From a virus: 64,000 nt of DNA. Positions 17,598 through 62,307 of the stretch are shown here, one piece after another; position 1 is the first letter of the stretch; each line of letters opens with the position of its first letter. The notes beneath the pieces were generated by a model. It was not told where the DNA came from, did not search any database, and saw only the letters and a program-made list of their open reading frames with translations. Made by a program: the position numbers and the translations under genes. The stretch is from the IMG/VR virus record IMGVR_UViG_3300045988_073070; one strand, given 5' to 3'.

Positions 17598-17766
17598 GTA
17601 TTCGTGCTATCGTATATCGGTGAAGGGAAATTATCACGGTTAATAATAGCAGTGCCGAGCAAGCATGAAAATGCTCACTATCCGAAGCGAGGTTCAAAGT
17701 TATAAACGGAGCGTGAACGTCTTCACCAGTAACGCCAATTAAAATCGCAGCACTGTCCTTTATCAA

Positions 17767-17873: not shown

Positions 17874-17887
17874 ATTCAAAGATTGCG

Positions 17888-18253: not shown

Positions 18254-19709
18254 TTTGACTTATTCGTTCAAGCTATCTACCAAAGAAGGTATAAGGCATG
18301 TTGCGAAAGCATTAACGTTTCGCAATCCAGACCCATTTGCGTATAGTAGCAGAATAGAGAAGTTTGATAAAAAGAAGTTTACGTTCAAAATAGGCATGAT
18401 GCCAACGCTTGAACGTTATTTAACCAAGAAAGGCGTTGAGTACGAAGTAGAGGACTACGCATTTGATTTGCCCGTTGGGGTTGAAGTGGATGACCGAATG
18501 ACGGGCAAATACATTCACCAAAAGAGAGCCGTTGAAGCATTCTTCCGAAAGAGGTTTGGAATCATAGTTGTCCCAACGAGAGGCGGAAAGACTTTCATTG
18601 CTTCCGAGATTTGCCGAATATTCTTGAATACGGATGACGGCAAATTTTTATTCCTTACAGATAACACAACGTTGTTTAATCAAGCTGTTGGAGACTTACA
18701 AGAGTTCTTCCAGAGATACGGTGGTGTAGAGGTAGGAGAGATAAAAGCTGGCAAGATTGACACTGGCAAGCGCGTAACTGTTGGAATGATTCAAACCGTC
18801 CAAAGTACACTATCGAAGCGTTGTAAGGACAAAAAGAAGAAAGCGGAGCTGACGAAGTATTTGCGTGAGTTGAAGTTTCTTTGTGTCGATGAGATACATG
18901 ATAACTGCTCCGATTCCAAATTGTCGATATACAAGAAGTGTAAGCGGTTGGAATATCAACTTTGTCTTTCAGCAACTCCGTATCGCACGGGAGCTTTGGT
19001 GCAAAATTTGAAGCTCAAGGAATGGAGTGGTGATGTTGTTTATACAATAACCGAAGCAAAGTTGAGGAAACGAAAAGTGTTGTCGGATTACAAAGTGTTC
19101 ATGCTTTTGGTAAATCATAACAATCTTGAATACGATACGAAGGTTGATGATTATGACCAATACCGAAAGGACTTGATATTTCATTCAGCCTATCGGAACG
19201 GGGTATTGCGTATGGTGGTTAAGATTCTACGGAGATTGAACCTGAAAACTTTACTACTATTCCAATCGAAAGAGCATGGCTACACGATGGAACGGCTCAC
19301 GGGCATACCTTTTATCTGCGGTGATAATACGGGTGAGGAAAGAGAGGAAGCAAAAGAAGCCTTCTTGGAAGGAAAAGGCGGTATGTTGTCTGCTTCGGGG
19401 ATATTCAAGAAAGGCGTAACACTTCCAGCCGTGGAAGTAATGATTAACGTAGATGGCGGATTGGAAGATGCTAATACGATTCAGAAAAAAGGGCGTGTTC
19501 TTGGAGCTACCAAAGATAAACAACGGAGCTTGATAATAGACTTCTTTGACGAGTTTGACGCATACTTCTCAGACCATTCGGGGGCAAGGTTACAGACCTA
19601 TATTGACGCTATCGGAGAGAAGCGTGTGGGAATCCTTGATACCGAAATTGACGATTGCTACGAGACTTTGGAACGATGGATTAAAAGGTGGTTCAAATTA
19701 GATGAATAG
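18219..19709 (+). CDS. superfamily 2 DNA helicase (DEAD/DEAH, Res-subunit-like)
   Basis: Motif I 'VVPTRGGKTFIA', motif II 'CVDEIHD', motif III 'LSATP', motif VI 'QKKGRVLG'. Confidence 0.8.
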   Translation: MVAIVKINRINNLTYSFKLSTKEGIRHVAKALTFRNPDPFAYSSRIEKFDKKKFTFKIGMMPTLERYLTKKGVEYEVEDYAFDLPVGVEVDDRMTGKYIHQKRAVEAFFRKRFGIIVVPTRGGKTFIASEICRIFLNTDDGKFLFLTDNTTLFNQAVGDLQEFFQRYGGVEVGEIKAGKIDTGKRVTVGMIQTVQSTLSKRCKDKKKKAELTKYLRELKFLCVDEIHDNCSDSKLSIYKKCKRLEYQLCLSATPYRTGALVQNLKLKEWSGDVVYTITEAKLRKRKVLSDYKVFMLLVNHNNLEYDTKVDDYDQYRKDLIFHSAYRNGVLRMVVKILRRLNLKTLLLFQSKEHGYTMERLTGIPFICGDNTGEEREEAKEAFLEGKGGMLSASGIFKKGVTLPAVEVMINVDGGLEDANTIQKKGRVLGATKDKQRSLIIDFFDEFDAYFSDHSGARLQTYIDAIGEKRVGILDTEIDDCYETLERWIKRWFKLDE

Positions 19710-20298
19710 GAAACAAAAACAATTGTATAGACAATCGGTTGATATGTTTATAGATATGTTGGAAACGATAACCAAACGGAAATGTAATTACAGGTGTAAT
19801 GATTCCGATGTTGGTTCGTTTGAAACGTTCTGTAACGAGTTCGACACGAATATTATCGGCATGTCCTTTATCAAGACGTATCTTGAATACCAATTCCAAA
19901 GTTGGTTCAATACGGGAACGGATAAGGACTATTCAAGAACAGTCAGATTCAGTTGGATGTTTGGAGCGAAAGCAATAAAACGCTGGCGAGTATTCAAACC
20001 CGAAGTGAACGTGAAGATTGTTCGAGGTCACATAAAAAAGTTGGGTATCTACAAACCGAAGGTGAGCCGAGAAACGAAGATACCAGAGTTAATTTTAAGG
20101 ATAAGACCTGCTGAAGAAAACTTCAAAAGGGAGTATCACAACACCCAGAGGGGATTCGCATGGTGTATAGCGAATACAACGTTGTATAACCATAAAAGTT
20201 CCCTTTGTGTTCGTTGTAGCTTCAAGAACGAATGTAAGGAAGTTCTGGAGAAACAATATCCAAAAGTATATGTAAAACGAGGTTATGGCAAGAAATAA
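19702..20298 (+). CDS. hypothetical protein with C-terminal Cys cluster
   Basis: 198-aa ORF containing 'CVRCSFKNEC'. Confidence 0.4.
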   Translation: MNRKQKQLYRQSVDMFIDMLETITKRKCNYRCNDSDVGSFETFCNEFDTNIIGMSFIKTYLEYQFQSWFNTGTDKDYSRTVRFSWMFGAKAIKRWRVFKPEVNVKIVRGHIKKLGIYKPKVSRETKIPELILRIRPAEENFKREYHNTQRGFAWCIANTTLYNHKSSLCVRCSFKNECKEVLEKQYPKVYVKRGYGKK

Positions 20299-23146: not shown

Positions 23147-23177
23147 TTTGTAGTTTGGAAAATAGTCTCTATCTTTG
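23147..23177 (+). promoter_or_regulatory. Bacteroidota sigma-A-type promoter, copy 1 (-33 TTTG / 19 nt / -7 TAtcTTTG)
   Basis: TTTG at 23147-23150 and TATCTTTG at 23170-23177. Part of a conserved block, 'ttttgtagtttgg..', found in three copies. Confidence 0.75.
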
Positions 23178-23186
23178 TATCAGAAT

Positions 23187-23203
23187 CGTAAATCAAATTG
23201 TAA
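23187..23203 (+). promoter_or_regulatory. start-codon-abutting tandem AAATTGTAAA-like motif
   Basis: 'cgtaaatcaaattgtaa' lies directly before the ATG at 23204. Confidence 0.6.
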
Positions 23204-23854
23204 ATGACGATGGAGAAAAAACAAAAAATTTCAGAAACTTTGTACCATAGATACGAGTATCTTGCAAAGAAATATGCAAGCCGTATTTATTCATACGAAC
23301 AATTATCATACGAGTTCGATGATTTGGTGCAGGAGTTCCGAATAAAGATATTCACGTCAATAAAGAGCTACGGAAAGCGTTGGTTAAAATATCGGAAAGA
23401 AGGTTATGCGAAACCTGTGCCCTTGAAATATTATCTTGAAGCTGCTTGTGCTAATAAAATGAGAGACTTCATGAAATATATAACAAGGGAAAATTACAAA
23501 GTAAGGATTGACGAAATCAATTATGACTTTGGGGTGGAAATGGATTCCGAGATTATTCCAGAGCTTAACAAGTTCGTCATTAACGGAATAGATTTATTGG
23601 AAGGATTAACGGGAAAGGAGAGAGCAATATTCAGTTTGTATCTCCGTGGGCATAGCTCAAAAATTCTTACCAAAGTTTATTTTAACAACGCCAAAGAGAA
23701 GGCAAAACGAAAAGAAATTTTGGACAGTGGTGACGAGCCGTTTGGAGTAGCAGATATAATAGAAATGCAATGTAACTTCTTAATCAAAAAGTATGGTAGT
23801 GAATTGCAGCAACTCCGTAGGACTTTCGCAACTTACAACTTTGATGAAGAGTAA
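23204..23854 (+). CDS. sigma-70-family-like transcription factor (regions 2 and 4)
   Basis: Region-2-like 'DDLVQEFRIKIFTSIKSY ... YLEAACANKMRDFMKYITRE' and region-4-like 'LTGKERAIFSLYLRGHSSKIL'. First gene after strong promoter copy 1. Confidence 0.55.
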   Translation: MTMEKKQKISETLYHRYEYLAKKYASRIYSYEQLSYEFDDLVQEFRIKIFTSIKSYGKRWLKYRKEGYAKPVPLKYYLEAACANKMRDFMKYITRENYKVRIDEINYDFGVEMDSEIIPELNKFVINGIDLLEGLTGKERAIFSLYLRGHSSKILTKVYFNNAKEKAKRKEILDSGDEPFGVADIIEMQCNFLIKKYGSELQQLRRTFATYNFDEE

Positions 23855-23881: not shown

Positions 23882-23899
23882 AATTAAATCGTAAAAAAG
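23882..23899 (+). promoter_or_regulatory. weaker copy of the start-proximal motif
   Basis: 'aattaaatcgtaaaaaag' lies before the ATG at 23900. Confidence 0.3.
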
Positions 23900-25243
23900 A
23901 TGGCAACTAAATTGACCGCCAATGTGGCAAAGAGAGTTAAAGCATTAGGAATTAATGCAACAACTGACGAGGCAGCACGCCCAAAACTTCTGGAAATTCT
24001 GGAAGAGAATGGAATTGAGCAGATGGACGATGAGGACATCACAACTCTGGTAGAAATCGCAGAATCTTTCGTGGACGCAGATGCGGACGGGGATGATGAA
24101 GGAGACGAAGAAGCGGAAAACGATGCTTTGGCTGAAGAAGTTGAAGAGGAAGAAAAACCGAAAAAGGGAGCAAAGAAAGCTACCAAGAAAGCCGAGCCTG
24201 AACCCGAAGAAGAAGATGAGGACGAGGAAGAAGAAAGCGATGATGAGGAAGAATCTGACGAGGATTCCGAAGAAGGCGATGAGCTTGACGACATGGACAG
24301 AGGTGAGTTGAAAGACTACATCAAAGAAAACGAATTGGAAATCACCGTGAAGAAATCTTGGAGTGATGACGACATTCGTGAAAAAATCCGTGAAGCTATG
24401 GGCGATGAAGAGGATGAGGAAGAAGATGAAGCACCTGCTCCGAAAAAGAACGCCAAAACTGCGGCTGCTCCGAAAAAAGAGGAAAAGAAAGCCGACAAAA
24501 AAGAAGCTCCGAAGGCTTCAGCCAAAAAGGAAGACAAACCGAAGGCTGACAAAAAAGCTACTGCGAAACGTGGTAACAAACTTGACCCGAAGAACAACGA
24601 AGAAGACAGAAAACATTTTGACTTCTTGAAGAAGTTGTTCCCTGAAAAAGATTACATCTATGCTTGGGTTGCAAGTGCTGGCGTAACAATCAAGTACAAA
24701 GGCAAAAACAGCAACCGTTCTCTTATCAGCCTTGAAAATTGTACGCTCAAGGGAGAAGGAAAGAATGCGGTTATGACTTGCAACCTGTACCTGCTTATCT
24801 TCAACGGCAAATACGAAGCGTTGGAAAAAGCCGAAGTGGAATATGAAAAATGTTGGAGTGGTGCTCCGATGTTGAAAGCTATCGAAGTAAGCGAAGCCGT
24901 TGAGGTCATTGAATCTCTGAAAGACGAAATGGACAAGATGGTAGGCGGTATCGACAAGAAGTTGGGAGACAACCGCAAGAAAATGGAAGAAGGTTTGAAG
25001 AAGGACAAGAAAGCTGCCGGCAAAGCATCATCCAAGAAGGCTTCTGACGATGAAGAGGAAGAAGATGAGGACGAGGAAGAACAGCCGAAAGCAAAAGCGA
25101 AACCTGCCGCAAAGAAGGCTTCCAAAAAGGTAGAAGTGGAAGAGGACGAAGAAGATGAGGATGACGAGGAAGAAGCACCCGCACCGAAAAAGAAAGCGAC
25201 CTCAAAGACCGCTACCAAGAAAACGGTAAACAAAAAGAAATAA
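23900..25243 (+). CDS. highly charged Glu/Asp/Lys-rich protein with HeH/SAP-like modules and a central globular domain
   Basis: 447 aa with long D/E and K/A/P tracts. Module 'DDMDRGELKDYIKENELEITVKKSWSDDDIREKIREAM' is shared with the ORF at 31623. Confidence 0.5.
   Translation: MATKLTANVAKRVKALGINATTDEAARPKLLEILEENGIEQMDDEDITTLVEIAESFVDADADGDDEGDEEAENDALAEEVEEEEKPKKGAKKATKKAEPEPEEEDEDEEEESDDEEESDEDSEEGDELDDMDRGELKDYIKENELEITVKKSWSDDDIREKIREAMGDEEDEEEDEAPAPKKNAKTAAAPKKEEKKADKKEAPKASAKKEDKPKADKKATAKRGNKLDPKNNEEDRKHFDFLKKLFPEKDYIYAWVASAGVTIKYKGKNSNRSLISLENCTLKGEGKNAVMTCNLYLLIFNGKYEALEKAEVEYEKCWSGAPMLKAIEVSEAVEVIESLKDEMDKMVGGIDKKLGDNRKKMEEGLKKDKKAAGKASSKKASDDEEEEDEDEEEQPKAKAKPAAKKASKKVEVEEDEEDEDDEEEAPAPKKKATSKTATKKTVNKKK
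24287..24400 (+). repeat. HeH/SAP-like module, paralogous copy A
   Basis: Roughly two-thirds aa identity (by eye) to the module at 32742-32855. Confidence 0.8.
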
Positions 25244-25272: not shown

Positions 25273-25306
25273 GGAGTAGCTTGTAAAAGTTGCTCCTTTT
25301 CTTTTC
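25273..25306 (+). terminator. rho-independent terminator (loop TTGTAAAA family)
   Basis: GGAGTAGC / ttgtaaaa / GTTGCTCC followed by TTTTCTTTTC. Confidence 0.75.
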
Positions 25307-25385: not shown

Positions 25386-26585
25386 ATGGAAATTCCGAAA
25401 AACAATTGCTTTTTTCCCGATTATGGAGTGGCGAAAGTAGAAACGTTTGGGATGTTGTACCCTGTAATTAATGATTACATCTTAACCAACAAACAAAAAG
25501 AAGAAAGCCGAGCAGGAGATGTAAAGGAACTGCTGGACGTCAAAACAATCATAACCAATCCTTATCAACGTTGCGTTGGCGGTTATGGTAGAGACATCAA
25601 TGTATTCTTTCTTCTTGCCGAAGCTATGTGGATAGCTGTTGGAAGAAAAGATGTAGAGTTTTTGGAAATATTCAATTCACGTATGAAGGACTTCAGTGAT
25701 GACGGAAAGACTTTCCACGCACCATACGGATTCCGATTGCGTCATTGGGGTATTCGTACCGAAGACAAATATGAAAGCGGAGTTAATGCCGCTCAAGGAT
25801 ATGACCAAGTAGCAGATGCAATACGGCTCTTGTCCGAGAATCATAACACACGTCAGGTAGTTATGGCAATATGGAATCCGAGTTTTGACTTGGGAGCGAA
25901 AAGCAAGGACATTCCTTGTAACGACCTTGTGATGTTGAAGATTCGTGATGGTAAGATGGTCACCACAATTCAGAATCGGAGTAATGACCTTCATTGGGGA
26001 TTGCCGACAAATATATTCCAATTCTCTTTCTTGACCGAGATTATGGCGACTTGTCTTGGTATCGAATTGGGAACACAAACACACAACTCTCAAAGTCTTC
26101 ATATTTATGATTGGAACGGTACGGCAAAGAAGATGCAAGAAATCTTCAAGGCTTCGGGAACGGGGCATTCACTTTATGAAGCTACGCCAGCCGAAGCGAA
26201 ACCGATGGACTTTGCTTTCAATCATGAGGTTGCAATTAACCGTCTCCGTGAAGTAGATTCACATTTGAATATCGTTATCGAAAATCTTCTCAGGATAAAG
26301 AATGGAGAAGATGAGATACAAGACGAAATTAAGCAGCTACAAGACTTTTCAACCTTCTTCTTTAATACTTACCAGCTCCTGAAAATATACGTGCTCTACA
26401 AGCATAAAAACAAGCTGGCTAAAACGGATATTGAAAAGGATGCTATTCGCAAAACAGCGATAGCCGAAATTGAACTGTTGGAAGCCGAAGGAGCAAAAGA
26501 TTGGGACATGGCAATACTTGCAAAGAACTTCTTTCACGCAAGGTTAAGTAAACCAATGAAGCATAAATATCTTGGGAAGCTATGA
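25386..26585 (+). CDS. thymidylate synthase (ThyA)/dNMP hydroxymethylase superfamily enzyme, atypical
   Basis: 'YGFRLRHWG', 'WNPS', catalytic-Cys context 'DIPCNDL' (Cys codon 25917-25919) and 'NRSNDLHWGLPTNIFQF' align with ThyA 'YGxQWR', 'WN', 'PCH' and 'RSxDxxLGxPFNI'. About 100 extra C-terminal aa. Confidence 0.8.
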   Translation: MEIPKNNCFFPDYGVAKVETFGMLYPVINDYILTNKQKEESRAGDVKELLDVKTIITNPYQRCVGGYGRDINVFFLLAEAMWIAVGRKDVEFLEIFNSRMKDFSDDGKTFHAPYGFRLRHWGIRTEDKYESGVNAAQGYDQVADAIRLLSENHNTRQVVMAIWNPSFDLGAKSKDIPCNDLVMLKIRDGKMVTTIQNRSNDLHWGLPTNIFQFSFLTEIMATCLGIELGTQTHNSQSLHIYDWNGTAKKMQEIFKASGTGHSLYEATPAEAKPMDFAFNHEVAINRLREVDSHLNIVIENLLRIKNGEDEIQDEIKQLQDFSTFFFNTYQLLKIYVLYKHKNKLAKTDIEKDAIRKTAIAEIELLEAEGAKDWDMAILAKNFFHARLSKPMKHKYLGKL

Positions 26586-29500: not shown

Positions 29501-30121
29501 AAGGGTGGAAGATTCTTTTCATTGGAAGAGTTCGTTGAAAGAGTTCCGTCAAAGGTAAACAAGAAAATCATAGAGAGGTTAATTGTTGCGGGAGCTTTTG
29601 ATATTGTTGAAAATGTAAAAAATCCGAGAGATAGAAAGAAGTTGTTGCAATGGTATCTTGATTATAAGAAAGCCGAAATGCCGAAAGATTATCAAGTGCC
29701 CGAAAGTGAAACAAATTCATTTTGGGTATTCGAGCAAAAACGTTTGACGGGATTTGGTGAAGTAGATTATGAGACAATGATTCGGGATGCTATTCCAAAT
29801 AAAAGAGTGGCAAAGTTATACGTTAATGACTTTGAGTTCTCCAATACGAAGGAAGGCAAAGAAGCCACAATTGCAGGCAAGTTAATATACTACCAAGAAC
29901 GTAGCATCAAGAACGGAACAATGGTCAGCGTTAATATAGACTGTAACAATACTATCATACCCGTAACACTTTGGCCAGATGCGGTTGAGAGACTTCCTGA
30001 AAATATATCGGAGTATAAAAACCGAGTTGTGGCAATATCTGGACGGGTCAAGAAAGATAAGTTCAAAAACCAAAAAGTTCTCTATTCAGATGATAGAACA
30101 AAAATTTATATAATATCGTAA
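26582..30121 (+). CDS. dnaE: DNA polymerase III alpha subunit (DnaE-type, C-family)
   Basis: PHP 'HLGVHSEYEILNG', 'GICDRNTLAG', catalytic 'MPDIDVDF', 'FLKEDILGL', 'FNKSHAAAYS' and a C-terminal OB-like region. About 115-aa N-terminal extension. Confidence 0.95.
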   Translation: MTESLQKWIEENHLVISESSLNGSDIISIEGMGTFLYLHPFDGKIIDEDFGFILSDEEFDMLDEAKVNFILFEFGQKFYYSGIKKTKNRYNELIFKPQFNDFKYLGVTSEEFIMDFSHLGVHSEYEILNGSGGCEVWAKKAKFTGVKALGICDRNTLAGALSFQSFCDKYGVKSVIGETITVAKDYDAEKENQETFELKAYILNYEGWKNLLLINKAMNVDYNGFIPDNELYKRGKGLALVIPKESEFNYIKDEKKEVIKLIAKYKKHFTRVYYQIDTVEYVSDSLFKKHLENIDTYICEYKKYVKPILINDSYYLDREMHELKGVLNKVLGKAAPEALNQYFKSCRETFDEYADWLDEVEPLFQTIIEGIENANRLADRVDFKIPSGERKLPHFEVDDPVALFFDMLEKGVQERLSHLPKKEFEVYMKRLEIECNVIVPNDLVDYFMILWDIINWCKKNGIMVGTGRGSVCGSLVAYCLHITDVDPLKYGLMFERFLNETRVSGERAKSADSMPDIDVDFPTEHRDAVKNYIKDKYGYDYTCSIGTYTRMKLKTCLKDFAKVKGLPFDVMNKLTKDIDDQIEYTWGDLIEYASKSKALFKFVQENPDIVHLTKYGMLQCKAASVHPSAAIIVPKHTVDGTNREIDIWEWMPVKKIDGVLVSEWEGKYIDKSGFLKEDILGLNQLDKFKSMEILIQKNYGKKIDWNQIPLDDEETFKYFKRGWNEDVFQFGTQGLMNYSRQVKPDTLAQLIAMTALFRPGPMELNAHSDFADIKNGKKKPTYDFGMEEITGETFGLYVYQEQIMKGVVVGGLTEVESDILRTTIKKKDVKTLSSYGEKFKEGYSKLLEKNGIENPKEYAEKVWAKLLAFSGYGFNKSHAAAYSIMSYWSQYMKVNYPLEFWTTSLQYAKEGEVPYRLAELKKTGVEIEIRPPDVNFSEQTFTCDPKEQRIFFSLTKIKDVGEKVVPYIMAEREKGGRFFSLEEFVERVPSKVNKKIIERLIVAGAFDIVENVKNPRDRKKLLQWYLDYKKAEMPKDYQVPESETNSFWVFEQKRLTGFGEVDYETMIRDAIPNKRVAKLYVNDFEFSNTKEGKEATIAGKLIYYQERSIKNGTMVSVNIDCNNTIIPVTLWPDAVERLPENISEYKNRVVAISGRVKKDKFKNQKVLYSDDRTKIYIIS

Positions 30122-30131
30122 ATCAAATTGT
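30117..30131 (+). promoter_or_regulatory. start-codon-abutting tandem motif
   Basis: 'cgtaaatcaaattgt' overlaps the dnaE stop and lies directly before the ATG at 30132. Confidence 0.6.
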
Positions 30132-32966: not shown

Positions 32967-32988
32967 ACCATGTGACTAAAATAAATTG

Positions 32989-33024
32989 GAGCCAACAGTT
33001 GAAATACATTGTTGGCTCTTTTTG
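32989..33024 (+). terminator. rho-independent terminator
   Basis: GAGCCAACA (32989-32997) / TGTTGGCTC (33010-33018) followed by TTTTTG. Confidence 0.8.
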
Positions 33025-33038
33025 TAAAAGTATATAAA

Positions 33039-38664: not shown

Positions 38665-39017
38665 ATACACAAATTGATTTTTCGCTTTTTCAAAAAGCAA
38701 TTGAATCGTTAATATTGGAAGGTTGTACGATTCTCCAAGTTATACTTCCTGATAATTCTTGTGCTTTCTTTTCGGTTTGGAGCTTTACAGAATCATTCTT
38801 CAACAGTGCTCAATCGGTTGATTTCAATACCGTAGAAGGAATAAACATCACAGAGTTCTTAAATAAGCAGGCATCGCAATATATGAATCGTAGTTCGTTT
38901 ATTGCGGCTTATAATAAAGTTGTTGACGATTCGCCAGTTGTTCAATGTCAATTTCATAAGAACGCAGTTTGGTTCAAATGGCAGCAGGTTGGCGATGAAA
39001 AGAAACGGAGATTGTAA
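38661..39017 (+). CDS. hypothetical protein
   Basis: 118-aa ORF with an ATGA overlap. Confidence 0.4.
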   Translation: MNTQIDFSLFQKAIESLILEGCTILQVILPDNSCAFFSVWSFTESFFNSAQSVDFNTVEGINITEFLNKQASQYMNRSSFIAAYNKVVDDSPVVQCQFHKNAVWFKWQQVGDEKKRRL

Positions 39018-41474: not shown

Positions 41475-41508
41475 GGAGTGGCTTGTAAAAGTCGCTCCTT
41501 TTTATTTT
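41475..41508 (+). terminator. rho-independent terminator (loop TTGTAAAA family)
   Basis: GGAGTGGC / ttgtaaaa / GTCGCTCC followed by TTTTTATTTT. Confidence 0.75.
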
Positions 41509-41546
41509 CCAAGGTTATTAACAATATCAATGTAAATTATAAGAAC

Positions 41547-44921: not shown

Positions 44922-44967
44922 AGAAATGCAATTAAATACAATACAAGTACAAGTATTAAGAAGGAGT

Positions 44968-44992
44968 ATTGTAAAATCAAATTGTAAAATGT
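44968..44992 (+). promoter_or_regulatory. start-codon-abutting tandem motif (clearest copy)
   Basis: 'attgtaaaatcaaattgtaaaatgt' lies before the ATG at 44993. Confidence 0.6.
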
Positions 44993-46231
44993 ATGGAAGA
45001 AAGTAAAAGAATACCTATCCCAGAGGACGTTGTAAACCCAAAAGAATATCTCAAATGGTATGCCTTAAATAAGCATCCATTATTGAGGAATCCTTACCAA
45101 ACGACTTCGGATGGGGAAGAAGTAAACATAGCAATGTTACCTCATAGGCTCAAGAAAGCTATTGAGCATTTGTCTCCCAAAGAACAAGAAGATTTGCTAA
45201 ATCTCAAGAAGCAGTGGATTGGACTAAATTCCAAAAGAAACGTAGCAAAGGCGATGGCGTATGGAAGAATGGGTTGTTTGGGCGGTAAGAAACCCGAAGA
45301 AGTACGTGTAATGAAACTCACTCCTTTTGAGGAAGATATTATGGAGCTTCTTGGACGTATGTTTACCATTCCCGAAGTAGTAAAGATTCTTGGAGAGGAT
45401 AATGGGATTGTGATAGACGAGGACGATGTAAAGAAAGTTTTGAAGCGTAATATTGTAGAGATAGAGCGAAAGCGTGAAGAGTATCGCAATAAGATTACGG
45501 ATGTCAGACTTTATAACAAACGCCCAAGACTTGACGAGTTGGGTTGGATGTATAGTAAAATGAAAGCAAGATATATTGCGCTGAACTCTATTGACGCATA
45601 CAACGCAATGCTACGAACGCTTGAGCAAATTCGCAAAGAATCCGAAGGAGACATTTTGAACATCAACGGAGTTCTTGACGTAAATATCGAAGTCCAAATA
45701 CAAAATCATATCCAAAAGGAAATTCTCAAAACTATCAATCTAAAAGAGATTATATTGGGACGTGTAGCGGCAAGGATGAACTTCAGCTTACCAAAATTGA
45801 TTGCTGGGTTACATAATTCTTATTACGCAAAATTCGTTGATATATCGGGAGACTACGATGCGGATGCTGAAATGATATATCCTTCAACTATGGCTTATGA
45901 CTTCACCGCTATTGAACGACAATCGGGCAGAGAGGTACAAGACATAAAAGCAGAGGATGTAACCGAGCAAGAGAAGTCCTCAGCAGAACGTACCAAAGAG
46001 ATGTTCTTGAAGAAGATTCGGAAGCAAAAAGAGGATTTGGAAAAACGCAATGCCGCTTTCGATGCAGAGGCAGAGATAGCAAAAGAAAAGATGAGCGAAG
46101 ATATATATGAACCTGTAAAGCGAGGAAAGGGCAGAGCAAAGGATAAAACACCACCTTCCAAAGAGAAGCGGAGTGGGGCAAGGTTTAAAAACAGAGACTA
46201 CTATACAGGTGAATCTAAAAAGAAGAAATAA
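44993..46231 (+). CDS. hypothetical protein with a possible HTH
   Basis: 412 aa. 'FTIPEVVKILGEDNGIVIDEDDVKKVL'. Basic C-terminus. Confidence 0.4.
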   Translation: MEESKRIPIPEDVVNPKEYLKWYALNKHPLLRNPYQTTSDGEEVNIAMLPHRLKKAIEHLSPKEQEDLLNLKKQWIGLNSKRNVAKAMAYGRMGCLGGKKPEEVRVMKLTPFEEDIMELLGRMFTIPEVVKILGEDNGIVIDEDDVKKVLKRNIVEIERKREEYRNKITDVRLYNKRPRLDELGWMYSKMKARYIALNSIDAYNAMLRTLEQIRKESEGDILNINGVLDVNIEVQIQNHIQKEILKTINLKEIILGRVAARMNFSLPKLIAGLHNSYYAKFVDISGDYDADAEMIYPSTMAYDFTAIERQSGREVQDIKAEDVTEQEKSSAERTKEMFLKKIRKQKEDLEKRNAAFDAEAEIAKEKMSEDIYEPVKRGKGRAKDKTPPSKEKRSGARFKNRDYYTGESKKKK

Positions 46232-46655: not shown

Positions 46656-47236
46656 TTGATATGAAAACATTAGAATTAAGCCAAGAAGAACTTTACCAGT
46701 TAATGATATCACTCAGTCCTCATACGGAGCTTGACGGGTATCGGGAATTACAAAACAAGATACGCAAAGCAATGGGCTTTCCCGTAGGTTTTGAATATGA
46801 CCAAAGCTATGATAACGTAGCAAGGTTGATGATGGAAGCAATGCAATACGATAACGGAATGTGCGACCGTTACAACCGTGAAACCTATCCTGACAAATGG
46901 GTTGAACTTATTCGACAAGCAGCTGAGAAGTTCTTCCAGTTCAATACCGAATTGCTCAACGAAGAAACTATTGAAGAAATAGGAACAGGTGGAGAGGAAA
47001 CCGAGATGGAAGAAAAGTATGGTCACATTGAAGGTTGGAAAGAATTGAACCGAGTTCTTGGTCATTACTTCGACCACTACCCAGAGGAAGATGAATATCA
47101 AGGTGATTGGGAGTTGTACGATTATAAGTGTCGTCAAAAGCCTGATTGGATATACCGTTGTAAGAAGTGCGGTTGTACGAAGGTAGGAGAAAAGCCTCAA
47201 GTTTGCGATTGCGATAAAATAGAATTGGTAAAATGA
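46652..47236 (+). CDS. hypothetical protein with C-terminal Cys cluster
   Basis: 'CRQKPDWIYRCKKCGC...CDCD'. Confidence 0.4.
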   Translation: MIDMKTLELSQEELYQLMISLSPHTELDGYRELQNKIRKAMGFPVGFEYDQSYDNVARLMMEAMQYDNGMCDRYNRETYPDKWVELIRQAAEKFFQFNTELLNEETIEEIGTGGEETEMEEKYGHIEGWKELNRVLGHYFDHYPEEDEYQGDWELYDYKCRQKPDWIYRCKKCGCTKVGEKPQVCDCDKIELVK

Positions 47237-47637
47237 GGATTCTTTGCGTGCTACAAAACGCTTGGGGTGATAGACAACTTCCAATAGTCTTTTGCCCCAA
47301 TCCTTTTAATAAGAGTGCGAAGGTTATACGGAAAATGGTAGGTGATAATTATTATGACTTTTCCAATACTACTGACGTTGTTACAAGTAGTCCGAAGGGT
47401 AAACCTTCACCGAACTATGAACACTTCAGAAAAGTCATGGATATGATGCCTAAATATGATTTGATATTAGTCTGCGGAAGGCAAGCCGAAGAAACGGTGA
47501 GAAAGTTCCAAGACGAGATAAGACAAATTGGTAAGCCAATCATATTCGTACCTCACCCAGCCGCAAGAAATCTTACCAATAAGAGAATAGCAAAGATTAA
47601 CCGAGTTATACAAATTGTAAATAAGATTGTAAAATGA
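47233..47637 (+). CDS. possible uracil-DNA-glycosylase-superfamily protein (divergent)
   Basis: 'IIFVPHPAARNL' resembles UDG motif B (HPS/HPAA) and 'VLQNAWG' sits where motif A would be. Weak, eye-level only. Confidence 0.3.
   Translation: MRILCVLQNAWGDRQLPIVFCPNPFNKSAKVIRKMVGDNYYDFSNTTDVVTSSPKGKPSPNYEHFRKVMDMMPKYDLILVCGRQAEETVRKFQDEIRQIGKPIIFVPHPAARNLTNKRIAKINRVIQIVNKIVK
47611..47633 (+). promoter_or_regulatory. start-codon-abutting tandem motif
   Basis: 'caaattgtaaataagattgtaaa' is embedded in the 3' end of the upstream CDS, before the ATG at 47634. Confidence 0.6.
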
Positions 47638-47849
47638 GTAACAAAGTAAATATAGCAAGACCGATTCTTGACGACCTTCAGCGTATGATGAATGAAGGTA
47701 TCTCTGTACCGAGTTCCGTTGAGCTTTGGCGTAGTAAGCACCATATAAAAGCCGAAGATTGGTTGCGTTGGGCTCAAGATAACAAAGAGTATTTTCAAGG
47801 CATGATTCGTCAAGAACTTGCTTATAAACGTTCAAACAAATATGGCTAA
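47634..47849 (+). CDS. hypothetical protein
   Basis: 71-aa ORF. Confidence 0.4.
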   Translation: MSNKVNIARPILDDLQRMMNEGISVPSSVELWRSKHHIKAEDWLRWAQDNKEYFQGMIRQELAYKRSNKYG

Positions 47850-47882: not shown

Positions 47883-48371
47883 ATGGAGCAAGAAATAGCA
47901 GCATTGTATGAACGTTTGTTACGTCAAGCCAAGTTCTACTATCCGAGAAGTACGGATGACGCATATGACCTTTGTAATGATACGATGGTAAAGATGCTAA
48001 CTAACCAAGACAAATTCCAAGAAGGTACAAACTTATACGGTTGGGCGTGTATGATTATGCGCAATCTCTTTATCAACGATTATCGAAGGACTTCCAGACA
48101 AGGCTTTGTAATGGAAAGCGAACAAGAAGGTGCGGATGTATTTGGACGGCTTGAACTCTTTGCTCCTGATACGGACGATTATTCAAGAGAATTGGACATA
48201 CGGGAAGCAATTGATGCACTACCAGAAAACGAGCGTGTTTGTATTAACTATTTGATTTGCGGTTATTCCTACGAACGAATGGCAGAGATATTTGAAGTAC
48301 CAATCGGAACGGTCAAAAGCCGTATTCATTTAGCAAGAAAGAAGTTACAAAAAGTCTTGACGAGATATTAA
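47883..48371 (+). CDS. ECF-type sigma-70 family RNA polymerase sigma factor
   Basis: Region 2 'DAYDLCNDTMVKMLTNQDKFQEGTNLYGWACMIMRNLFINDYRR'. Region 4 'LPENERVCINYLICGYSYERMAEIFEVPIGTVKSRIHLARKKL'. Confidence 0.85.
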   Translation: MEQEIAALYERLLRQAKFYYPRSTDDAYDLCNDTMVKMLTNQDKFQEGTNLYGWACMIMRNLFINDYRRTSRQGFVMESEQEGADVFGRLELFAPDTDDYSRELDIREAIDALPENERVCINYLICGYSYERMAEIFEVPIGTVKSRIHLARKKLQKVLTRY

Positions 48372-49539: not shown

Positions 49540-49570
49540 TTTGTAGATTAAATTATTGTTCGTACCTTTG
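49540..49570 (+). promoter_or_regulatory. Bacteroidota sigma-A-type promoter, copy 2
   Basis: TTTG at 49540-49543, 19-nt spacer, TACCTTTG at 49563-49570. Confidence 0.75.
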
Positions 49571-49657
49571 TACCGTAATCAAGAACGAAACATCTGTTAA
49601 GGTTACAAAGTTAGAAACAATAAACATTAAAATATCAACTTATAAAATTTGGAAATT

Positions 49658-51098: not shown

Positions 51099-51569
51099 AT
51101 GAAAGAGAACAGCTTGGTCATAGAACTTCAACACTTCGCAGGATTTATGGAAGGTAGGCAAAAGAAGTTCTATGACCAAATGATAAAAGACGCAAAGCCT
51201 GTTGAGGTTGTAAGTTTATCCGAAGTATTCACCCCAGAGCAGATAGACTTCATAAAGAAGGCGGTGCGACCCAAAGCAAAAGAGTGTTATCGCAATGCTC
51301 ATCTGCTTACTTCTATCTTTCCCGAAGCTCTTTATGTGGAAGGGAAAATGACATGCTGTAAATGCTTCGGAATCGAGCATGCTTGGAATAAGATAGGTGA
51401 CAAATACATTGACATTACTATGGAGCTTGTGTTGCACCGAGACCCAACCAAAGAGGAATACATGAGCTTGGGCGAATATAGCGAGGACGTAATATCACCC
51501 ATAGTTTTGGAGACGGGATTTTATGGAAACATATATTCCATAGTTTATAACAGAAACAATCGTAAATAA
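51099..51569 (+). CDS. hypothetical protein with a candidate Cys-His-Asp triad (papain/transglutaminase-like?)
   Basis: 'KECYRNAH' ... 'IEHAWNKIGDKYIDIT'. ATG at 51099. Confidence 0.25.
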   Translation: MKENSLVIELQHFAGFMEGRQKKFYDQMIKDAKPVEVVSLSEVFTPEQIDFIKKAVRPKAKECYRNAHLLTSIFPEALYVEGKMTCCKCFGIEHAWNKIGDKYIDITMELVLHRDPTKEEYMSLGEYSEDVISPIVLETGFYGNIYSIVYNRNNRK

Positions 51570-51577
51570 AAATTAAT

Positions 51578-52512: not shown

Positions 52513-52688
52513 AAATCATTTATCTTGATATAATGATTAAAGATAGGTTTATAACGCAAATACCTTATCCGTATTGTCCGTTGTTTCCTATTGATTCAGA
52601 AGAGCTGAGGAGTTTTATTGAAGATAAAAGACCGAGCTTGAAAAACAAAGATTTTCGCATTGAATTTTCCAATAACAAAGTTAAGTAA
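52494..52688 (+). CDS. hypothetical small protein (start uncertain: 52494 or 52530)
   Basis: The upstream part of the track ORF overlaps the previous gene. Confidence 0.3.
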   Translation: MENSGLKIIYLDIMIKDRFITQIPYPYCPLFPIDSEELRSFIEDKRPSLKNKDFRIEFSNNKVK

Positions 52689-52689
52689 C

Positions 52690-52709
52690 AAAATTGTAAA
52701 TTAAATTGT
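52690..52709 (+). promoter_or_regulatory. start-codon-abutting tandem motif
   Basis: 'aaaattgtaaattaaattgt' lies before the ATG at 52710. Confidence 0.6.
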
Positions 52710-53159
52710 ATGACCAGAATAAATAGTGCTATTTCAGTAAGGTGTTTGACAGATGAACATTTACTTGCCGAGCATAGAGAGATTAAGAGACTACCAGCTT
52801 GTTACCTCAAAGCAAAAACTTCGGGAGCTTTGAAAAGAATACCGAAGGAGTTCAAATTGGGAACTGGACATGTTACATTCTTTCTTGATAAATTCGCATT
52901 CACTTATACGAGATACAAAGCTATTCATACTGAATGCTTGCGTAGAGGTTTTCAAGTTACCGATTATTCAGATTTATGGAGAGCAGTTGAACCTACTTCA
53001 CAATGGAAGTCCTACGAGCCTACGAAGGAAGAACTTGAGCTACTTATACAACGTATTACAGAGCGAATACAAGGCAGTAGCAAGACCTTCTTTCACTATG
53101 ATGGGAAAGCTATCACTAAGGGTGAAGCAATCGAAATATTAAATTGTAAAACAAATTGA
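52710..53159 (+). CDS. denV: pyrimidine dimer DNA glycosylase (T4 endonuclease V homologue)
   Basis: 'MTRINSAISVRCLTDEHLLAEHREIKRLP' and 'GTGHVTFFLDKFAF..ECLRRGF' align closely with T4 EndoV '[27 protein letters not shown]' and 'GAGHVTFFYDKLEF..ECLKRGF' (from memory). Confidence 0.92.
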   Translation: MTRINSAISVRCLTDEHLLAEHREIKRLPACYLKAKTSGALKRIPKEFKLGTGHVTFFLDKFAFTYTRYKAIHTECLRRGFQVTDYSDLWRAVEPTSQWKSYEPTKEELELLIQRITERIQGSSKTFFHYDGKAITKGEAIEILNCKTN

Positions 53160-53162
53160 ATT
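53141..53162 (+). promoter_or_regulatory. start-codon-abutting tandem motif
   Basis: 'aaattgtaaaacaaattgaatt' is embedded in the denV 3' end, before the ATG at 53163. Confidence 0.55.
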
Positions 53163-56453: not shown

Positions 56454-56490
56454 AGCGAAGTTTTTACCAAAATTCTTCGCTTTTTATTTT
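56454..56490 (+). terminator. rho-independent terminator (overlaps the -33 region of promoter copy 3)
   Basis: AGCGAAG (56454-56460) / CTTCGCT (56475-56481) followed by TTTTATTTT. Confidence 0.75.
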
Positions 56491-56518
56491 GTAGTTTGTA
56501 AAATAGTTCCTACCTTTG
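56488..56518 (+). promoter_or_regulatory. Bacteroidota sigma-A-type promoter, copy 3
   Basis: TTTG at 56488-56491, 19-nt spacer, TACCTTTG at 56511-56518. Confidence 0.75.
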
Positions 56519-57968: not shown

Positions 57969-58538
57969 ATGGAAATTGTAAAGAAAATAGCAAAATGGAT
58001 TCTCCGAGAGGAACTGAACGACCTTCAGACCACCGTGAATAAGCAAGCCCACGATAAGGTTGAAATGAACAAGCAGATAGCGAGTTTGAGAGAAAGGTTG
58101 TTTGGTTCAAGAAAAGTCCTACTATCCCAGACGATGGTAGAATGTATTGTTAAAATGCTACCTGACCCGAACAAAGCAGGTTGTGGCGGTTTAACTTCTT
58201 CGGACTTGAAAATGCGAAACATGATTTTTGTAGATGAACTTGGCGGACGACAATATCAACACTCCGTTCGATTCGTTCAGGCTATCGGAGACGATGAACG
58301 GTTACAAGGTTTAACCATAAACATATCCGAATACAATATCAATGTGTTCGTCCCATTGAGACGGGAGAATGTGAGTTATGAGGTATTCGGAGTACAAACC
58401 GCAATAGATACTTACTTTTGGGACTTGTATGGAGCAGGCATACGAATGTTGAGCAACGAAGCCTTTGCGATGAGTTCCGAATTTATCAACGCTCAGCATA
58501 ATGTTTTGAAAGAATTTAGAGAACAAGGATTGTTATGA
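57969..58538 (+). CDS. hypothetical protein
   Basis: 189-aa ORF. Confidence 0.4.
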   Translation: MEIVKKIAKWILREELNDLQTTVNKQAHDKVEMNKQIASLRERLFGSRKVLLSQTMVECIVKMLPDPNKAGCGGLTSSDLKMRNMIFVDELGGRQYQHSVRFVQAIGDDERLQGLTINISEYNINVFVPLRRENVSYEVFGVQTAIDTYFWDLYGAGIRMLSNEAFAMSSEFINAQHNVLKEFREQGLL

Positions 58539-59276: not shown

Positions 59277-59314
59277 AGAACGCAAGTATATAGTGTTTGA
59301 ATATTGTTTAATTT

Positions 59315-59327
59315 AACAAATTGTAAA
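59315..59327 (+). promoter_or_regulatory. start-codon-abutting motif
   Basis: 'aacaaattgtaaa' lies before the ATG at 59328. Confidence 0.55.
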
Positions 59328-59700: not shown

Positions 59701-59740
59701 GCCCAAAGTTTATAATTCCAGAAGATTAAACAATATTATA

Positions 59741-60717: not shown

Positions 60718-60762
60718 ATACCGTGGACAAGGTTAATAACTACGTTCACGGTATTTTAATTT
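60718..60762 (+). terminator. hairpin/terminator-like element
   Basis: Perfect 8-bp stem ATACCGTG (60718-60725) / CACGGTAT (60747-60754) followed by TTTAATTT. The loop is 21 nt, which makes this less certain. Confidence 0.45.
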
Positions 60763-61446: not shown

Positions 61447-61468
61447 AACTTACCAAAGTTTATATAAC

Positions 61469-61487
61469 AAAATTGTAAATCAAATTG
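61469..61487 (+). promoter_or_regulatory. start-codon-abutting tandem motif
   Basis: 'aaaattgtaaatcaaattg' lies 2 nt before the ATG at 61490. Confidence 0.6.
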
Positions 61488-61489
61488 AT

Positions 61490-62272: not shown

Positions 62273-62307
62273 CATTATCAAGTATAATAAACAAAATCGT
62301 AAACGTT

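Follow-up and report, generated by a model that had tools for sequence, protein, structure and literature searches.

A conserved ten-letter word directly before phage start codons as a candidate Shine–Dalgarno-independent translation-initiation element

Why do phage genes as diverse as those for a sigma-like protein, an HD nucleotidase, a denV-like repair enzyme, a P-loop protein and HU carry the same short word immediately before their start codons? The question is raised by a stretch of phage DNA of 64,000 nucleotides (hereafter the window, meaning the whole stretch analysed), in which the leader word AAAT(T/C)GTAAA, 10 letters long, stands singly or in tandem directly before start codons. 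An earlier reading made from the letters alone (the sequence-only reading) had cited eight sites and remarked on the functional diversity of the genes behind them. All eight are present as written, the coordinates agree with unit starts 12–13 nt apart and a proximal unit that ends 0–5 nt before the ATG, the downstream genes are indeed diverse, and the observation is stronger than first reported. Among the three weaker copies proposed, those at 23882 and 62293 hold as ATCGTAAA variants, since T/C is a normal alternation in the family, and the one at 31601 is not the motif, as it reads TTTACAAATT, which is close to the reverse complement. Two copies had been missed, at 39011 (ATTGTAA, ATG 39018) and at 51559 (ATCGTAAATAAAAATTAAT, ATG 51578). 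The motif as described was real but its extent was underestimated: it is family-wide and comes as one, two or three units per leader. The sites of the window and the promoter-like elements next to them, all on the + strand, are the following.

23147..23177, +, host-type promoter TTTG-N19-TATCTTTG, upstream of the leader of ATG 23204
23185..23203, +, two-unit leader ATCGTAAATCAAATTGTAA, unit starts 23185/23197, adjoining ATG 23204 of the sigma-like gene
23888..23896, +, single unit ATCGTAAAA, 3 nt before ATG 23900 of an acidic/basic low-complexity protein
30115..30131, +, two-unit element ATCGTAAATCAAATTGT, unit starts 30115/30127, adjoining ATG 30132 of a YfbR-like HD nucleotidase
39011..39017, +, single unit (AG)ATTGTAA, adjoining ATG 39018, its TAA being the stop of the upstream gene
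44968..44989, +, two-unit leader ATTGTAAAATCAAATTGTAAAA, unit starts 44968/44981, 3 nt before ATG 44993 of a 412-aa protein
47614..47633, +, two-unit element ATTGTAAATAAGATTGTAAA, unit starts 47614/47626, adjoining ATG 47634
51559..51577, +, unit ATCGTAAAT and a degenerate second unit AAAAATTAAT, before ATG 51578
52676..52689, +, promoter-like box CAAAGTTAAGTAAC, 17 nt from its start to unit 1 of the ATG 52710 leader
52693..52709, +, two-unit leader ATTGTAAATTAAATTGT, unit starts 52693/52705, adjoining ATG 52710 of a denV-like pyrimidine dimer glycosylase
53143..53162, +, two-unit element ATTGTAAAACAAATTGAATT, unit starts 53143/53155, adjoining ATG 53163 of a P-loop protein
59320..59327, +, single unit ATTGTAAA, adjoining ATG 59328 of HU
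61454..61468, +, promoter-like box CAAAGTTTATATAAC, 18 nt from its start to unit 1 of the ATG 61490 leader
61472..61489, +, two-unit leader ATTGTAAATCAAATTGAT, unit starts 61472/61484, adjoining ATG 61490 of a 260-aa protein
62296..62303, +, single unit ATCGTAAA, 4 nt before ATG 62308

The word is stranded and tied to starts. In the window, the exact 10-mer AAATTGTAAA has 8 copies on the coding (+) strand and 0 on the − strand, against a dinucleotide-shuffle mean of 0.5 and maximum of 3. Seven of these eight begin in the 30 nt that precede a called ATG (binomial P=1.4e-9), and the same is true for 15 of the 24 window copies of AT[TC]GTAAA (P=1.3e-15). Window gene starts were our own simple calls (the first ATG of tiling ORFs), and those at 44993, 52710, 53163, 59328, 61490 and 62308 match independent gene calls in identical or near-identical contigs. 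The enrichment near starts survives an AT-rich background: the two-unit form is found on seven genes where 0.18 are expected, with none of 2000 permutations reaching seven, and ATTGTA occurs 12 times before window starts where 1.5 are expected, again with 0 of 2000 permutations as high. These backgrounds were obtained by column permutation of the 86 upstream regions, which preserves position-specific AT-richness, and a first-order Markov model trained on the window upstream regions agrees with the result. The flanks adjacent to the motif are unrelated between sites, which argues that the copies are not recent duplications. Upstream regions with the motif are also less structured than the others (mean MFE -1.4 versus -2.8 kcal/mol, P=0.019). 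Rfam and tRNA scans of the window gave no matches, and no antisense sRNA complementary to the motif was evident there, reverse-complement-like words being found in few leaders only.

Some copies overlap coding sequence, as the sequence-only reading had pointed out. The element before ATG 47634 lies entirely within CDS 47233-47637, whose protein ends in ...QIVNKIVK; unit 2 at the 53163 site contains the TGA stop of CDS 52710-53159; and the TAA of unit 1 before ATG 30132 (30119-30121) is the dnaE stop codon. One further candidate, a TTG start at 18255 behind two units, was rejected: the orthologue in related locus L002 has AGT there, and ATTGTAAA at 18228 encodes a conserved N-terminal I-V-K.

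Many of the sites recur in related loci (L numbers). The leader of ATG 23204 is kept in the L002 and L006 orthologues and has three units in L004/L005, and orthologues of the 23900 site carry AAAATTGTAAAAACA/AAAAAAA at the equivalent place, a TCG to TTG change. The element before ATG 30132 is kept in L001, L002, L006 and L007, with unit 2 missing in L003-L005, and the unit before ATG 39018 is present in L011/L012 and absent in L013-L015. Both units of the 44993 leader are found in six orthologues (73-97% protein identity, unit spacing 12-16 nt), the 51578 leader sequence is identical in L011/L012, the L010 orthologue of the 53163 site reads ATTGTAAAACAAAATCGAATC, and the HU unit is kept in L010-L015. 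For ATG 61490, both units and the upstream box are present in the L013/L014 orthologues, at 50-59% identity.

Across the family set (105 related loci, 1.8 Mb, 861 non-redundant gene starts), an unbiased scan of positions -30..-1 returned ATTGTAAA as the most enriched 8-mer (57 occurrences versus 2.9 expected), and the T/C variant ATCGTAAA was found 26 times versus 1.3 expected. Control words of the same composition occurred 3-14 times versus 113 for the motif. The motif stands before ~13% of genes, about one in eight, in a phage family of ~100-kb genomes. Family sites were collected with the seed nT[TC]GTA, by which the U-Y-G-U core is fixed; 74% of the units at non-redundant sites have TTG and 26% TCG. 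Unit starts peak at -5/-6, -13..-10 and -20..-18, the G of the proximal unit lies 1-10 nt from the ATG (1-3 nt in a quarter of proximal units), and the spacing between units ranges from 12 to 16 nt among orthologues. At orthologous sites the core is conserved and the flanks have diverged, down to 47-50% protein identity, and the motif persists in a phage whose DnaE is only 35% identical. The distant phage L009 has five copies of ATCGTAA on the coding strand, and every one of them starts 6-10 nt before an ATG and ends 0-3 nt before it, too close for a promoter of that ATG.

The distribution of the motif over genes follows gene arrangement. It is found at 3% of overlapping genes versus 19-23% of genes behind gaps of 31-150 nt, its frequency following how far a gene has to be initiated on its own. 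In many relatives it stands before late structural genes (tail and head-region) as well, and at two late genes it lies 5-17 nt past a hairpin and T-tract in >20 diverged relatives. Many uncoupled genes, including a 537-aa late gene, have no motif, which means that it is not required for initiation. Outside the family, the word was not used at annotated starts of Chryseobacterium phage MA9V-3 or Bacteroides phage DAC16. When 10 kb of the window were compared by megablast with the phages in GenBank, no match was found, indicating that there is no annotated close relative, and a collection-wide scan for the two-unit pattern returned, among the matches listed, mainly viral contigs that are AT-rich and unrelated, giant-virus bins among them. 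A Bacteroides or Parabacteroides host is suggested solely by resemblance to 'Gratiaviridae'; in the genome collection the phage HU matched a phage-like MAG contig, an actinobacterium that is unrelated, and nothing else.

The motif is independent of the promoter-like elements in its vicinity. In line with the sequence-only reading, it does not fit the TAnnTTTG promoter: its units, of the form (T/A)(C/A)AAAT(T/C)G, mismatch two specified positions. True TTTG-N19-TAnnTTTG promoters lie apart from it, at 23147-23177, 49540-49570 and 56488-56518, and a separate promoter-like phage box, CAGTTATA / CAArGTT..TAAC (also CAAAGTT..TAAC), lies upstream of it. The distance from the start of this box to unit 1 is 17-18 nt at six sites; behind host-type TAnnTTTG promoters, unit 1 begins 7-8 nt past the promoter G. 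In Bacteroidetes the transcription start site lies 4-5 nt downstream of TAnnTTTG (PMC6847099), so that unit 1 of the 23204 leader would begin at about +3 relative to the start predicted from the promoter at 23147-23177. The same promoter-plus-motif cassette is found in L002, L004, L013, L014 and L020. The 61490 box is not part of the motif and is conserved in L013/L014 at equal spacing; its position upstream of the units places the motif within the leader. At denV, L011/L012 keep the upstream box and have lost the motif, and box and motif are therefore separable. Besides following promoters or boxes, the motif occurs inside upstream coding sequences with stop codons embedded in it and after late-gene hairpins. 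A sigma-70 consensus scan was uninformative (50 sites versus 51 expected).

From this geometry we infer that the motif acts in the RNA. We give a probability of about 0.5 to the reading that AAAU(U/C)GUAAA is a cis-acting, RBS-like translation-initiation element of the mRNA, specific to this phage family and independent of Shine–Dalgarno (SD) pairing, in which case it would most likely substitute for the absent SD site. An SD-independent translation element was one of the three roles proposed earlier, and it is the best supported of them. The distances are loose, with the proximal G 1-10 nt from the ATG and units 12-16 nt apart, as for a ribosome-binding site, and an unstructured, RBS-like leader element would fit the sequence data better than a promoter does.

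The general start context of the window follows the rules described for Bacteroidia. Bacteroidia prefer 'Kozak-like' adenines at -3, -6 and -11 to -14 (Baez et al. 2019, PMC6847099), and their ribosomes are reported not to use SD pairing (PMC7797042). The 86 window genes show no SD; they have A at -12..-14 and A or G at -3, and TAAA peaks at -15 in the window start regions. In registers -19 and -12 the motif brings its A-tract onto -12 to -14, or onto -6/-7 with A-rich flanks at -13. In register -5/-6 it puts U or G at -3, and its conserved G falls outside the described Bacteroidia context. The length of the two-unit leader equals the modal 5'UTR of B. thetaiotaomicron, 23 nt (PMC7366714), a species of the suggested host genus Bacteroides.

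On the translation reading, the motif would mark start codons that need initiation independent of coupling to the upstream gene. The proximal copy would have its first letter between 5 and 14 nt ahead of the AUG, and in many early and middle genes a second, sometimes a third, copy would follow 12-16 nt further upstream; the tandem copies would then make up the entire ~22-25 nt leader, beginning a few nucleotides from the predicted transcription start. The element could keep the initiation region unstructured and set adenines in the registers favoured in Bacteroidia, -12/-13/-14 and -6. The U-Y-G-U core, fixed by the seed in the family collection and yet present in the top start-proximal 8-mer of the unbiased scan, suggests that a specific partner recognises it, which may be part of the ribosome or encoded by the phage.

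An invariant G is unusual for the A-rich initiation regions of Bacteroidia and speaks against the translation reading; simple 'A/U-rich landing pad' models leave the core unexplained. We infer that the motif would both promote initiation and be read by a specific partner, and it is possible, though doubtful, that a dedicated one, belonging to the SD-blind 30S subunit of Bacteroidia or supplied by the phage family, reads the A-tract-flanked U-(U/C)-G-U core. Taking E. coli 16S rRNA as a proxy, which may differ from that of the host, we found no complement of the motif in the 3' tail, and no convincing accessible complementarity elsewhere in this proxy, the best matches lying in helix 44 and depending heavily on G-U pairs. 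A same-sense identity of UCGUAA with E. coli 16S positions 1495-1500 was set aside as probable chance. A start-stop mini-ORF (UUG UAA) was rejected, given that 26% of the units have UCG. As for a phage bS21, no ribosomal protein family was among the Pfam hits of the called genes, and the paper on bS21-encoding phages reports no motif. If a dedicated partner does read the core, the word would be a true sequence-specific signal of start-site selection and a functional SD substitute, and the phage might use one to three copies to privilege or time the translation of its own mRNAs.

A rival reading takes the same word as the binding site of a repressor. Here the motif would be bound by a phage RNA-binding protein analogous to T4 RegA, which would occlude the start codon for a timed shut-off, the tandem units permitting cooperative binding; we consider this unlikely. 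The SELEX consensus of T4 RegA, aaAAUUGUUAUGUAA, had been given correctly in the sequence-only reading, and the word closely resembles this ligand (PMC3014915). RegA sites are A/U-rich and unstructured, abut or overlap the AUG and are found on many mRNAs (PMC3014915). The motif is likewise A/U-rich and unstructured and abuts or overlaps the AUG, each of its tandem units has, with 12-13 nt, roughly the length of a RegA site, the two-unit form is found in the window on early or middle genes (sigma-like, nucleotide metabolism, repair), and the invariant core suggests a sequence-specific reader. Membership in the RegA system was not supported. Such a system depends on a protein of the RegA family (Pfam Translat_reg; fold of PDB 1REG). 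Searches with T4 RegA (NC_000866; phmmer --max and blastp) of six-frame ORFs from the window and loci gave a best E=1.5, and none of the 18,322 ORFs in the 1.8 Mb of family loci reached E<=1, in what is an insensitive single-sequence search with ~5 kb of genome outside the sample. The targets of RegA are early and middle mRNAs, repressed when infection is late; unlike that regulon, the motif is found in many relatives before late genes of the tail and head region, and it has the strong consensus that natural T4 RegA sites lack. A RegA-like operator is a possible role by analogy only.

That the motif belongs to transcription instead, as a promoter element of the -7/-10 type or an initiator used by host RNA polymerase with a phage sigma factor, would yield very short or absent leaders, and we regard it as distinctly unlikely. 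The phage does have genes for a sigma of the ECF type (47883-48371, with a Pfam match above threshold) and for a sigma-like protein (23204-23854), and the orientation of the motif is strictly that of transcription. The motif is commoner behind intergenic gaps and lies directly 3' of terminator-like hairpins in late regions. With unit 1 at a fixed 17-18 nt from the box at six sites, and close to the predicted start site behind both promoter classes, it could belong to a promoter or initiator. T4 late promoters have the sequence TATAAATA, from which TGTAAATA differs at one position. ECF sigma promoters have AAC at -35 and CGT at -10, 16-17 nt apart; this arrangement was rejected on spacing, because the inspected site sequences hold no consistent AAC-N16-17-CGT, and the only GAAC-N17-CGT, at the 30132 site, is dnaE coding sequence. 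Against a promoter, the non-redundant sites show no fixed distance to the ATG, and a single fixed start site would not suffice for a proximal G that is 1-10 nt away, in a quarter of units 1-3 nt; in L009 the units end within 3 nt of the ATG at every site. Two or three tandem copies whose spacing drifts from 12 to 16 nt are unlike a -35/-10 pair, better and separate promoter candidates lie upstream, and copies occur within operons at overlapping stop/start junctions. The proposal that a phage sigma yields leaderless mRNAs from the motif is not supported, on three of these grounds: separate promoters, variable G-to-ATG distance and drifting spacing. Leaders of <10 nt are also found on only 3.7% of B. 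thetaiotaomicron mRNAs (PMC7366714).

A site acting as DNA in the early transcribed region, whether a repressor operator, a sigma-dependent promoter-proximal pause or an ops-like site at which an elongation factor loads, would work on the tandem direct repeats where these closely follow a promoter. At the sigma-like and DUF2786/DUF7168 genes, and in their orthologues, two or three such repeats do begin 7-8 nt past host-type promoters, and leader-region ops sites serve NusG paralogues in Bacteroides (PMC11685472). Such a site is nevertheless very improbable here, because most copies are single and lie beside an ATG with no promoter in reach or inside coding sequence, the 12-16 nt spacing is irregular for cooperative DNA binding, and the only constant relation is to the start codon. 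The opsX leader has a pause hairpin and a GC-rich hairpin of the non-template strand (PMC11685472); no ops-like hairpins were found in the motif leaders, which are nearly structure-free (mean MFE -1.4 kcal/mol). That the word is a functionless by-product of AT-rich start contexts, of TAA stops beside ATGs and of shared leader ancestry is hardly credible, for although Bacteroidia start regions are A-rich, TAAA peaks at -15 in this phage and an upstream stop codon lies inside the motif at three window sites, the two-unit count survives a position-specific background, control words of equal composition are far rarer, flanks of different sites are unrelated, and the core is kept where flanks and proteins have diverged, even in the phage with the 35% identical DnaE.

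For start-codon choice without SD pairing in Bacteroidia, the features described so far are limited to preferences in composition, namely for adenine at a few positions. We found no published description of a start-proximal word of this form in the searchable literature, in agreement with the sequence-only reading. A discrete, conserved and mutable word whose core is fixed while its copy number varies would offer a concrete handle on SD-independent initiation and on the means by which a phage could steer the ribosomes of its host towards phage mRNAs. The family that carries it consists of abundant ~100-kb phages and resembles the 'Gratiaviridae' of the gut, for which Bacteroides and Parabacteroides are the predicted hosts. 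Together with the promoter-like boxes, the motif would improve the annotation of start codons and operons in uncultured phages of the family and could supply compact expression parts for Bacteroides engineering.

SD-independent translational enhancers include the epsilon sequence of T7 gene 10, A/U-rich leaders that bind S1 and the omega repeats of TMV. Among systems compared with the motif, the T4 late promoter TATAAATA and TAnnTTTG are likewise short, A/T-rich, strand-specific and upstream of many phage genes, whereas the motif is too close to the ATG, at too variable a distance, is tandem, and lies downstream of promoter-like elements. With T4 RegA operators it shares the AAAUUGU..AUG resemblance and diverse target mRNAs, several of them for DNA metabolism; tandem units, in contrast, are not a RegA feature, and host phylum and phage lineage are unrelated. 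Like an SD site, its proximal unit lies at -5 to -14 with variable spacing and is enriched at uncoupled genes, but it has no complementarity to the CCUCC of the anti-SD. With the start context of Bacteroidia it shares a place upstream of the AUG in an unstructured region of mRNAs without an SD and, in registers -19 and -12, an A-tract on favoured positions; that context is a compositional preference at single positions, whereas the motif is a defined 10-nt word, present in one to three copies in one phage family.

The word AAAT(T/C)GTAAA, one copy of which we call a unit, precedes the start codons of about a dozen genes in the window, named here by the position of their ATG. Every site cited in a sequence-only reading of this DNA is present; of the weaker copies it also proposed, two (23882 and 62293) are genuine ATCGTAAA variants, whereas 31601 is not a copy, and copies at 39011 and 51559 had been overlooked. 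AAATTGTAAA was found eight times on the + strand and never on the - strand (shuffle mean 0.5), with 7 of the 8 copies beginning in the 30 nt ahead of a called ATG (P=1.4e-9). The same is true of 15 of 24 AT[TC]GTAAA copies (P=1.3e-15). An AT-rich background does not explain the motif: in a column permutation of 86 upstream regions, which preserves position-specific composition, two-unit sequences (7 observed vs 0.18) and ATTGTA (12 vs 1.5 expected) reached the observed counts in 0 of 2000 permutations.

Judged from sequence conservation, the word is a family trait under selection, since related contigs retain it at the orthologous genes while the flanks have diverged.

Retention of the word in relatives
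Gene 44993: both units kept in six relatives with 73-97% protein identity, spaced 12-16 nt apart
Gene 61490: two units and the upstream box kept at 50-59% identity
Gene 59328 (HU): single unit retained
Gene 53163: two units inside the upstream CDS, in relatives
Gene 23900: TCG in the window, TTG in relatives
Gene 30132: retained in four relatives; three relatives without the second unit

Across the family set (105 loci, 1.79 Mb, 861 non-redundant starts), AT[TC]GTAA occurred 113 times in -45..-1, against 3-14 times for control words of the same composition. The most enriched 8-mer in -30..-1 was ATTGTAAA (57 vs 2.9 expected), followed by words overlapping it and by ATCGTAAA (26 vs 1.3 expected). 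Collected with a seed that fixes the U-Y-G-U core, the sites give the consensus aaA-T-(T 74% / C 26%)-G-T-A-A-A-a; the 8-mer scan is unbiased. In L009, a distant 88-kb phage (IMGVR_UViG_3300006919_000042) whose DnaE is only 35% identical, ATCGTAA occurs five times on the coding strand (1057, 4008, 6979, 8747 and 13379), each starting 6-10 nt before an ATG, always in the ATCGTAA(A) form and as a single unit; at two of these sites a TAtcTTTA-like box precedes the unit by 7-12 nt. Neither Bacteroides phage DAC16 nor Chryseobacterium phage MA9V-3 uses the word at its annotated starts.

Counted from the ATG, units begin mainly at -5/-6, from -13 to -10 and from -20 to -18; the proximal G lies 1-10 nt from the ATG, and unit spacing is 12-16 nt. 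The motif accompanies 3% of overlapping genes but 19-23% of those behind gaps of 31-150 nt, and motif-bearing initiation regions fold weakly, with a mean MFE of -1.4 vs -2.8 kcal/mol for the others (P=0.019). At 44989-45006, the end of unit 2 creates an out-of-frame ATG 4 nt before the true start 44993, opening a 5-codon mini-ORF, ATGTATGGAAGAAAGTAA; this is unusual because AUG is reportedly avoided near Bacteroidetes start codons (PMC6847099), and close relatives have AAAATATATGG there, without this ATG. ATTGTAAA also lies just 3' of the start codon in two genes (18219-18236 and 57969-57983; N-termini MVAIVK and MEIVK, METIVK in the L002 orthologue), either by chance or because the word also works a few nucleotides into the coding region.

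Four upstream contexts recur: a host-type promoter, a phage box, no promoter in reach, and late genes. The first runs TAnnTTTG, 7-8 nt, two or three tandem units, ATG, and is seen at the sigma-like gene (window 23147-23203), its orthologues, and a DUF2786/DUF7168 gene just past the window. As transcription starts 4-5 nt after the -7 element (PMC6847099), the predicted leader would be ~22 nt and made of motif. The window holds three perfect host-type promoters, all beginning TTTGTAG and two nearly identical across 31 nt, which from their sequence are probably early promoters read by host sigma-A; one of them would drive the phage sigma-like gene. The sequence-only reading had counted three phage sigma-like factors, two of which we confirmed.

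Promoters and sigma factors in the window
23147-23177, perfect TTTG-N19-TAnnTTTG
49540-49570, perfect TTTG-N19-TAnnTTTG
56488-56518, perfect TTTG-N19-TAnnTTTG
47883-48371, + strand, ECF-type sigma factor, regions 2 and 4 above Pfam thresholds
23204-23854, + strand, sigma-like protein, weak match

The box is a second, separate, strand-specific motif, 30-60 nt upstream of start codons. In the window it reads CAArGTT-N2-5-(T/A)AAC or CAAGTATA, with 11 copies on the + strand (8 of them 34-52 nt upstream of an ATG) and one on the - strand; upstream of late genes in relatives L027-L106 it reads (TTG)ACAGTTATA(A/G). For starts behind a gap of 40 nt or more, CAGTTATA was the most enriched 8-mer in -85..-25 (24 vs 0.4 expected). 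Box start and unit 1 are 17-18 nt apart at 61490, 52710, 62308, 44993 and two sites in relatives. The two are separable: denV in related contigs L011 and L012 retains the box without the motif. The box is probably a promoter used with a phage sigma factor.

Box positions in the window
61454-61468
52676-52689
51539-51551
41510-41522
49606-49618
60728-60740
26539-26552
46179-46191
59704-59716
62279-62292
44950-44960
59283-59293
6548-6558

Where no promoter is in reach (47634, 53163, 30132 and 39018), copies lie in the upstream CDS, where stop and start overlap, and the word itself takes in stop codons. The late-gene arrangement (box, hairpin and T-tract, 5-17 variable nt, AT(T/C)GTAAA, 0-6 nt, ATG) occurs at two orthologous positions in >20 diverged relatives, in which the stems co-vary and the word is unchanged. 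Because the late box lies just 2-5 nt before the hairpin and T-tract, its transcripts may lack the hairpin's 5' arm and escape termination. At a third late gene (537-aa protein) the hairpin and T-tract abut the ATG, with no motif and no room for a promoter, so such hairpins must be read through or bypassed. Near-identical terminator hairpins also lie at 25273-25296 and 41475-41498 (also 32988-33018); the pair, GGAGTAGC-TTGTAAAAGT-TGCTCC and GGAGTGGC-TTGTAAAAGT-CGCTCC, differs by a compensatory stem change, and TTGTAAAA, the word's core, is part of both loops. Ahead of the RecA-like gene's ATG, at 33018-33038, a T-tract leads directly into TTTGTAAAAGTATATAAA.

What stays constant is the word's relation to the coding strand and the start codon; upstream of it stand, depending on the site, one of two promoter types, coding sequence or a hairpin. 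Such loose geometry is typical of elements on single-stranded mRNA near the ribosome-binding region and atypical of a leaderless promoter or a -35/-10 pair. In the registers it favours, the word places its A-tract at -12/-13 and -6, where adenines enhance initiation in Bacteroidia (PMC6847099), and the two-unit leader matches the modal 5'UTR of B. thetaiotaomicron, 23 nt (PMC7366714). We therefore favour, with a probability of roughly 0.5, an mRNA-level, SD-independent translation-initiation-region element for independently initiated genes. The U-Y-G-U core, although seed-fixed in the consensus, tops the unbiased 8-mer scan; plain A/U-richness is no explanation for this core, and it points to a specific reader, which would recognise it. 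No 16S rRNA complementarity to the word was found with E. coli 16S as proxy. In same-sense orientation, the variant AAAUCGUAAA and the 16S segment AAGUCGUAACAAGG (E. coli 1494-1501), which is universally conserved, share an identical UCGUAA, probably by chance; no complementary site was found in E. coli 16S. No ribosomal-protein family was among the Pfam hits on record for called genes.

A RegA-like operator would likewise act on RNA, bound by a repressor; the word resembles the RegA SELEX ligand (PMC3014915) and its units stand in tandem, but we found no RegA homologue in the window or 1.8 Mb of family loci, and late genes carry copies, making this reading rather unlikely. Somewhat less likely still is a promoter or initiator: for both promoter classes the predicted start site coincides with unit 1, yet the distance is wrong at many sites, and tandem repeats and the L009 geometry are left unexplained. 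L009 may be the best system for telling promoter from leader function. A DNA operator, pause site or ops-like site matches only the host-type-promoter context with tandem units and is very improbable. Chance or by-product origin, contradicted by column permutation, control-word counts and 8-mer scan, is the least credible.

The translation-initiation element we favour is best classed among non-SD elements; that a phylum blind to SD sites has here a genuine signal for sequence-specific start selection is a less probable proposal. Our literature search, which took in the word, translation initiation in Bacteroidetes, phage bS21, conserved start motifs of phages, RegA and the RBS of Bacteroides, found no description of it, in line with the sequence-only reading.

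All long ORFs of the window are on the + strand. Tail and baseplate proteins (M23 peptidase, sheath initiator, Baseplate_J) are encoded at 1-17.5 kb, and replication, recombination and nucleotide-metabolism proteins at 18-64 kb: SF2 helicase, DnaB-like helicase, DnaG-like primase, thymidylate-synthase-like protein, DnaE, YfbR-like HD nucleotidase, RecA-like protein, SbcCD-like proteins, denV, HU and RNase T. A 357-nt non-coding gap between a tail-fibre-like gene and the replication module (17531-17887) holds runs of G and, more than once, the words GGGGGT(C)AAA(A)TTTCT and CCCAAGTAAA(A)TT; an origin or regulatory region may lie here, and an Rfam scan of it gave no match. The 71-aa gene at 47634-47849, with a perfect two-unit motif before its start, lies just 5' of the ECF sigma gene and could encode an anti-sigma or partner protein. 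Directly after the sigma-like gene, and preceded by the motif, 23900-25243 encodes a 447-aa protein whose small central domain is surrounded by long low-complexity tracts, acidic (D/E) and basic (K), that make up most of it; neither Pfam nor PHROGs gave a family match. Hypermodified thymidine in the phage DNA is a possibility, given the thymidylate-synthase-like protein (25386-26585) and a protein with HMUDK_hel, the helical domain of 5-hydroxymethyl-dUMP DNA kinase, encoded ~9 kb past the window end (L020, a related contig, 18921-20078) beside dUTPase/DCD and ferritin-like genes.

Megablast with 10 kb of the window found no near relative among GenBank phages, and the window DnaE is 31-35% identical to those of Chryseobacterium, Cellulophaga, Tenacibaculum and Bacteroides phages. 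In public metagenomes there are near-identical contigs of 96-100 kb, circularly permuted, together with a large family of relatives. A Bacteroidota host is indicated by the three perfect host-type promoters and by start codons that lack an SD and have A at -12 to -14 and A/G at -3, as described in Flavobacterium johnsoniae (PMC6847099). The gene content resembles that described for the candidate family 'Gratiaviridae', a possible affiliation, in DnaG, DnaE, SF1/SF2 helicases, SbcCD, RecA, a ferritin-like protein and a contractile tail (PMC8008677); for that family, CRISPR evidence predicts Bacteroides and Parabacteroides as hosts (PMC8008677).
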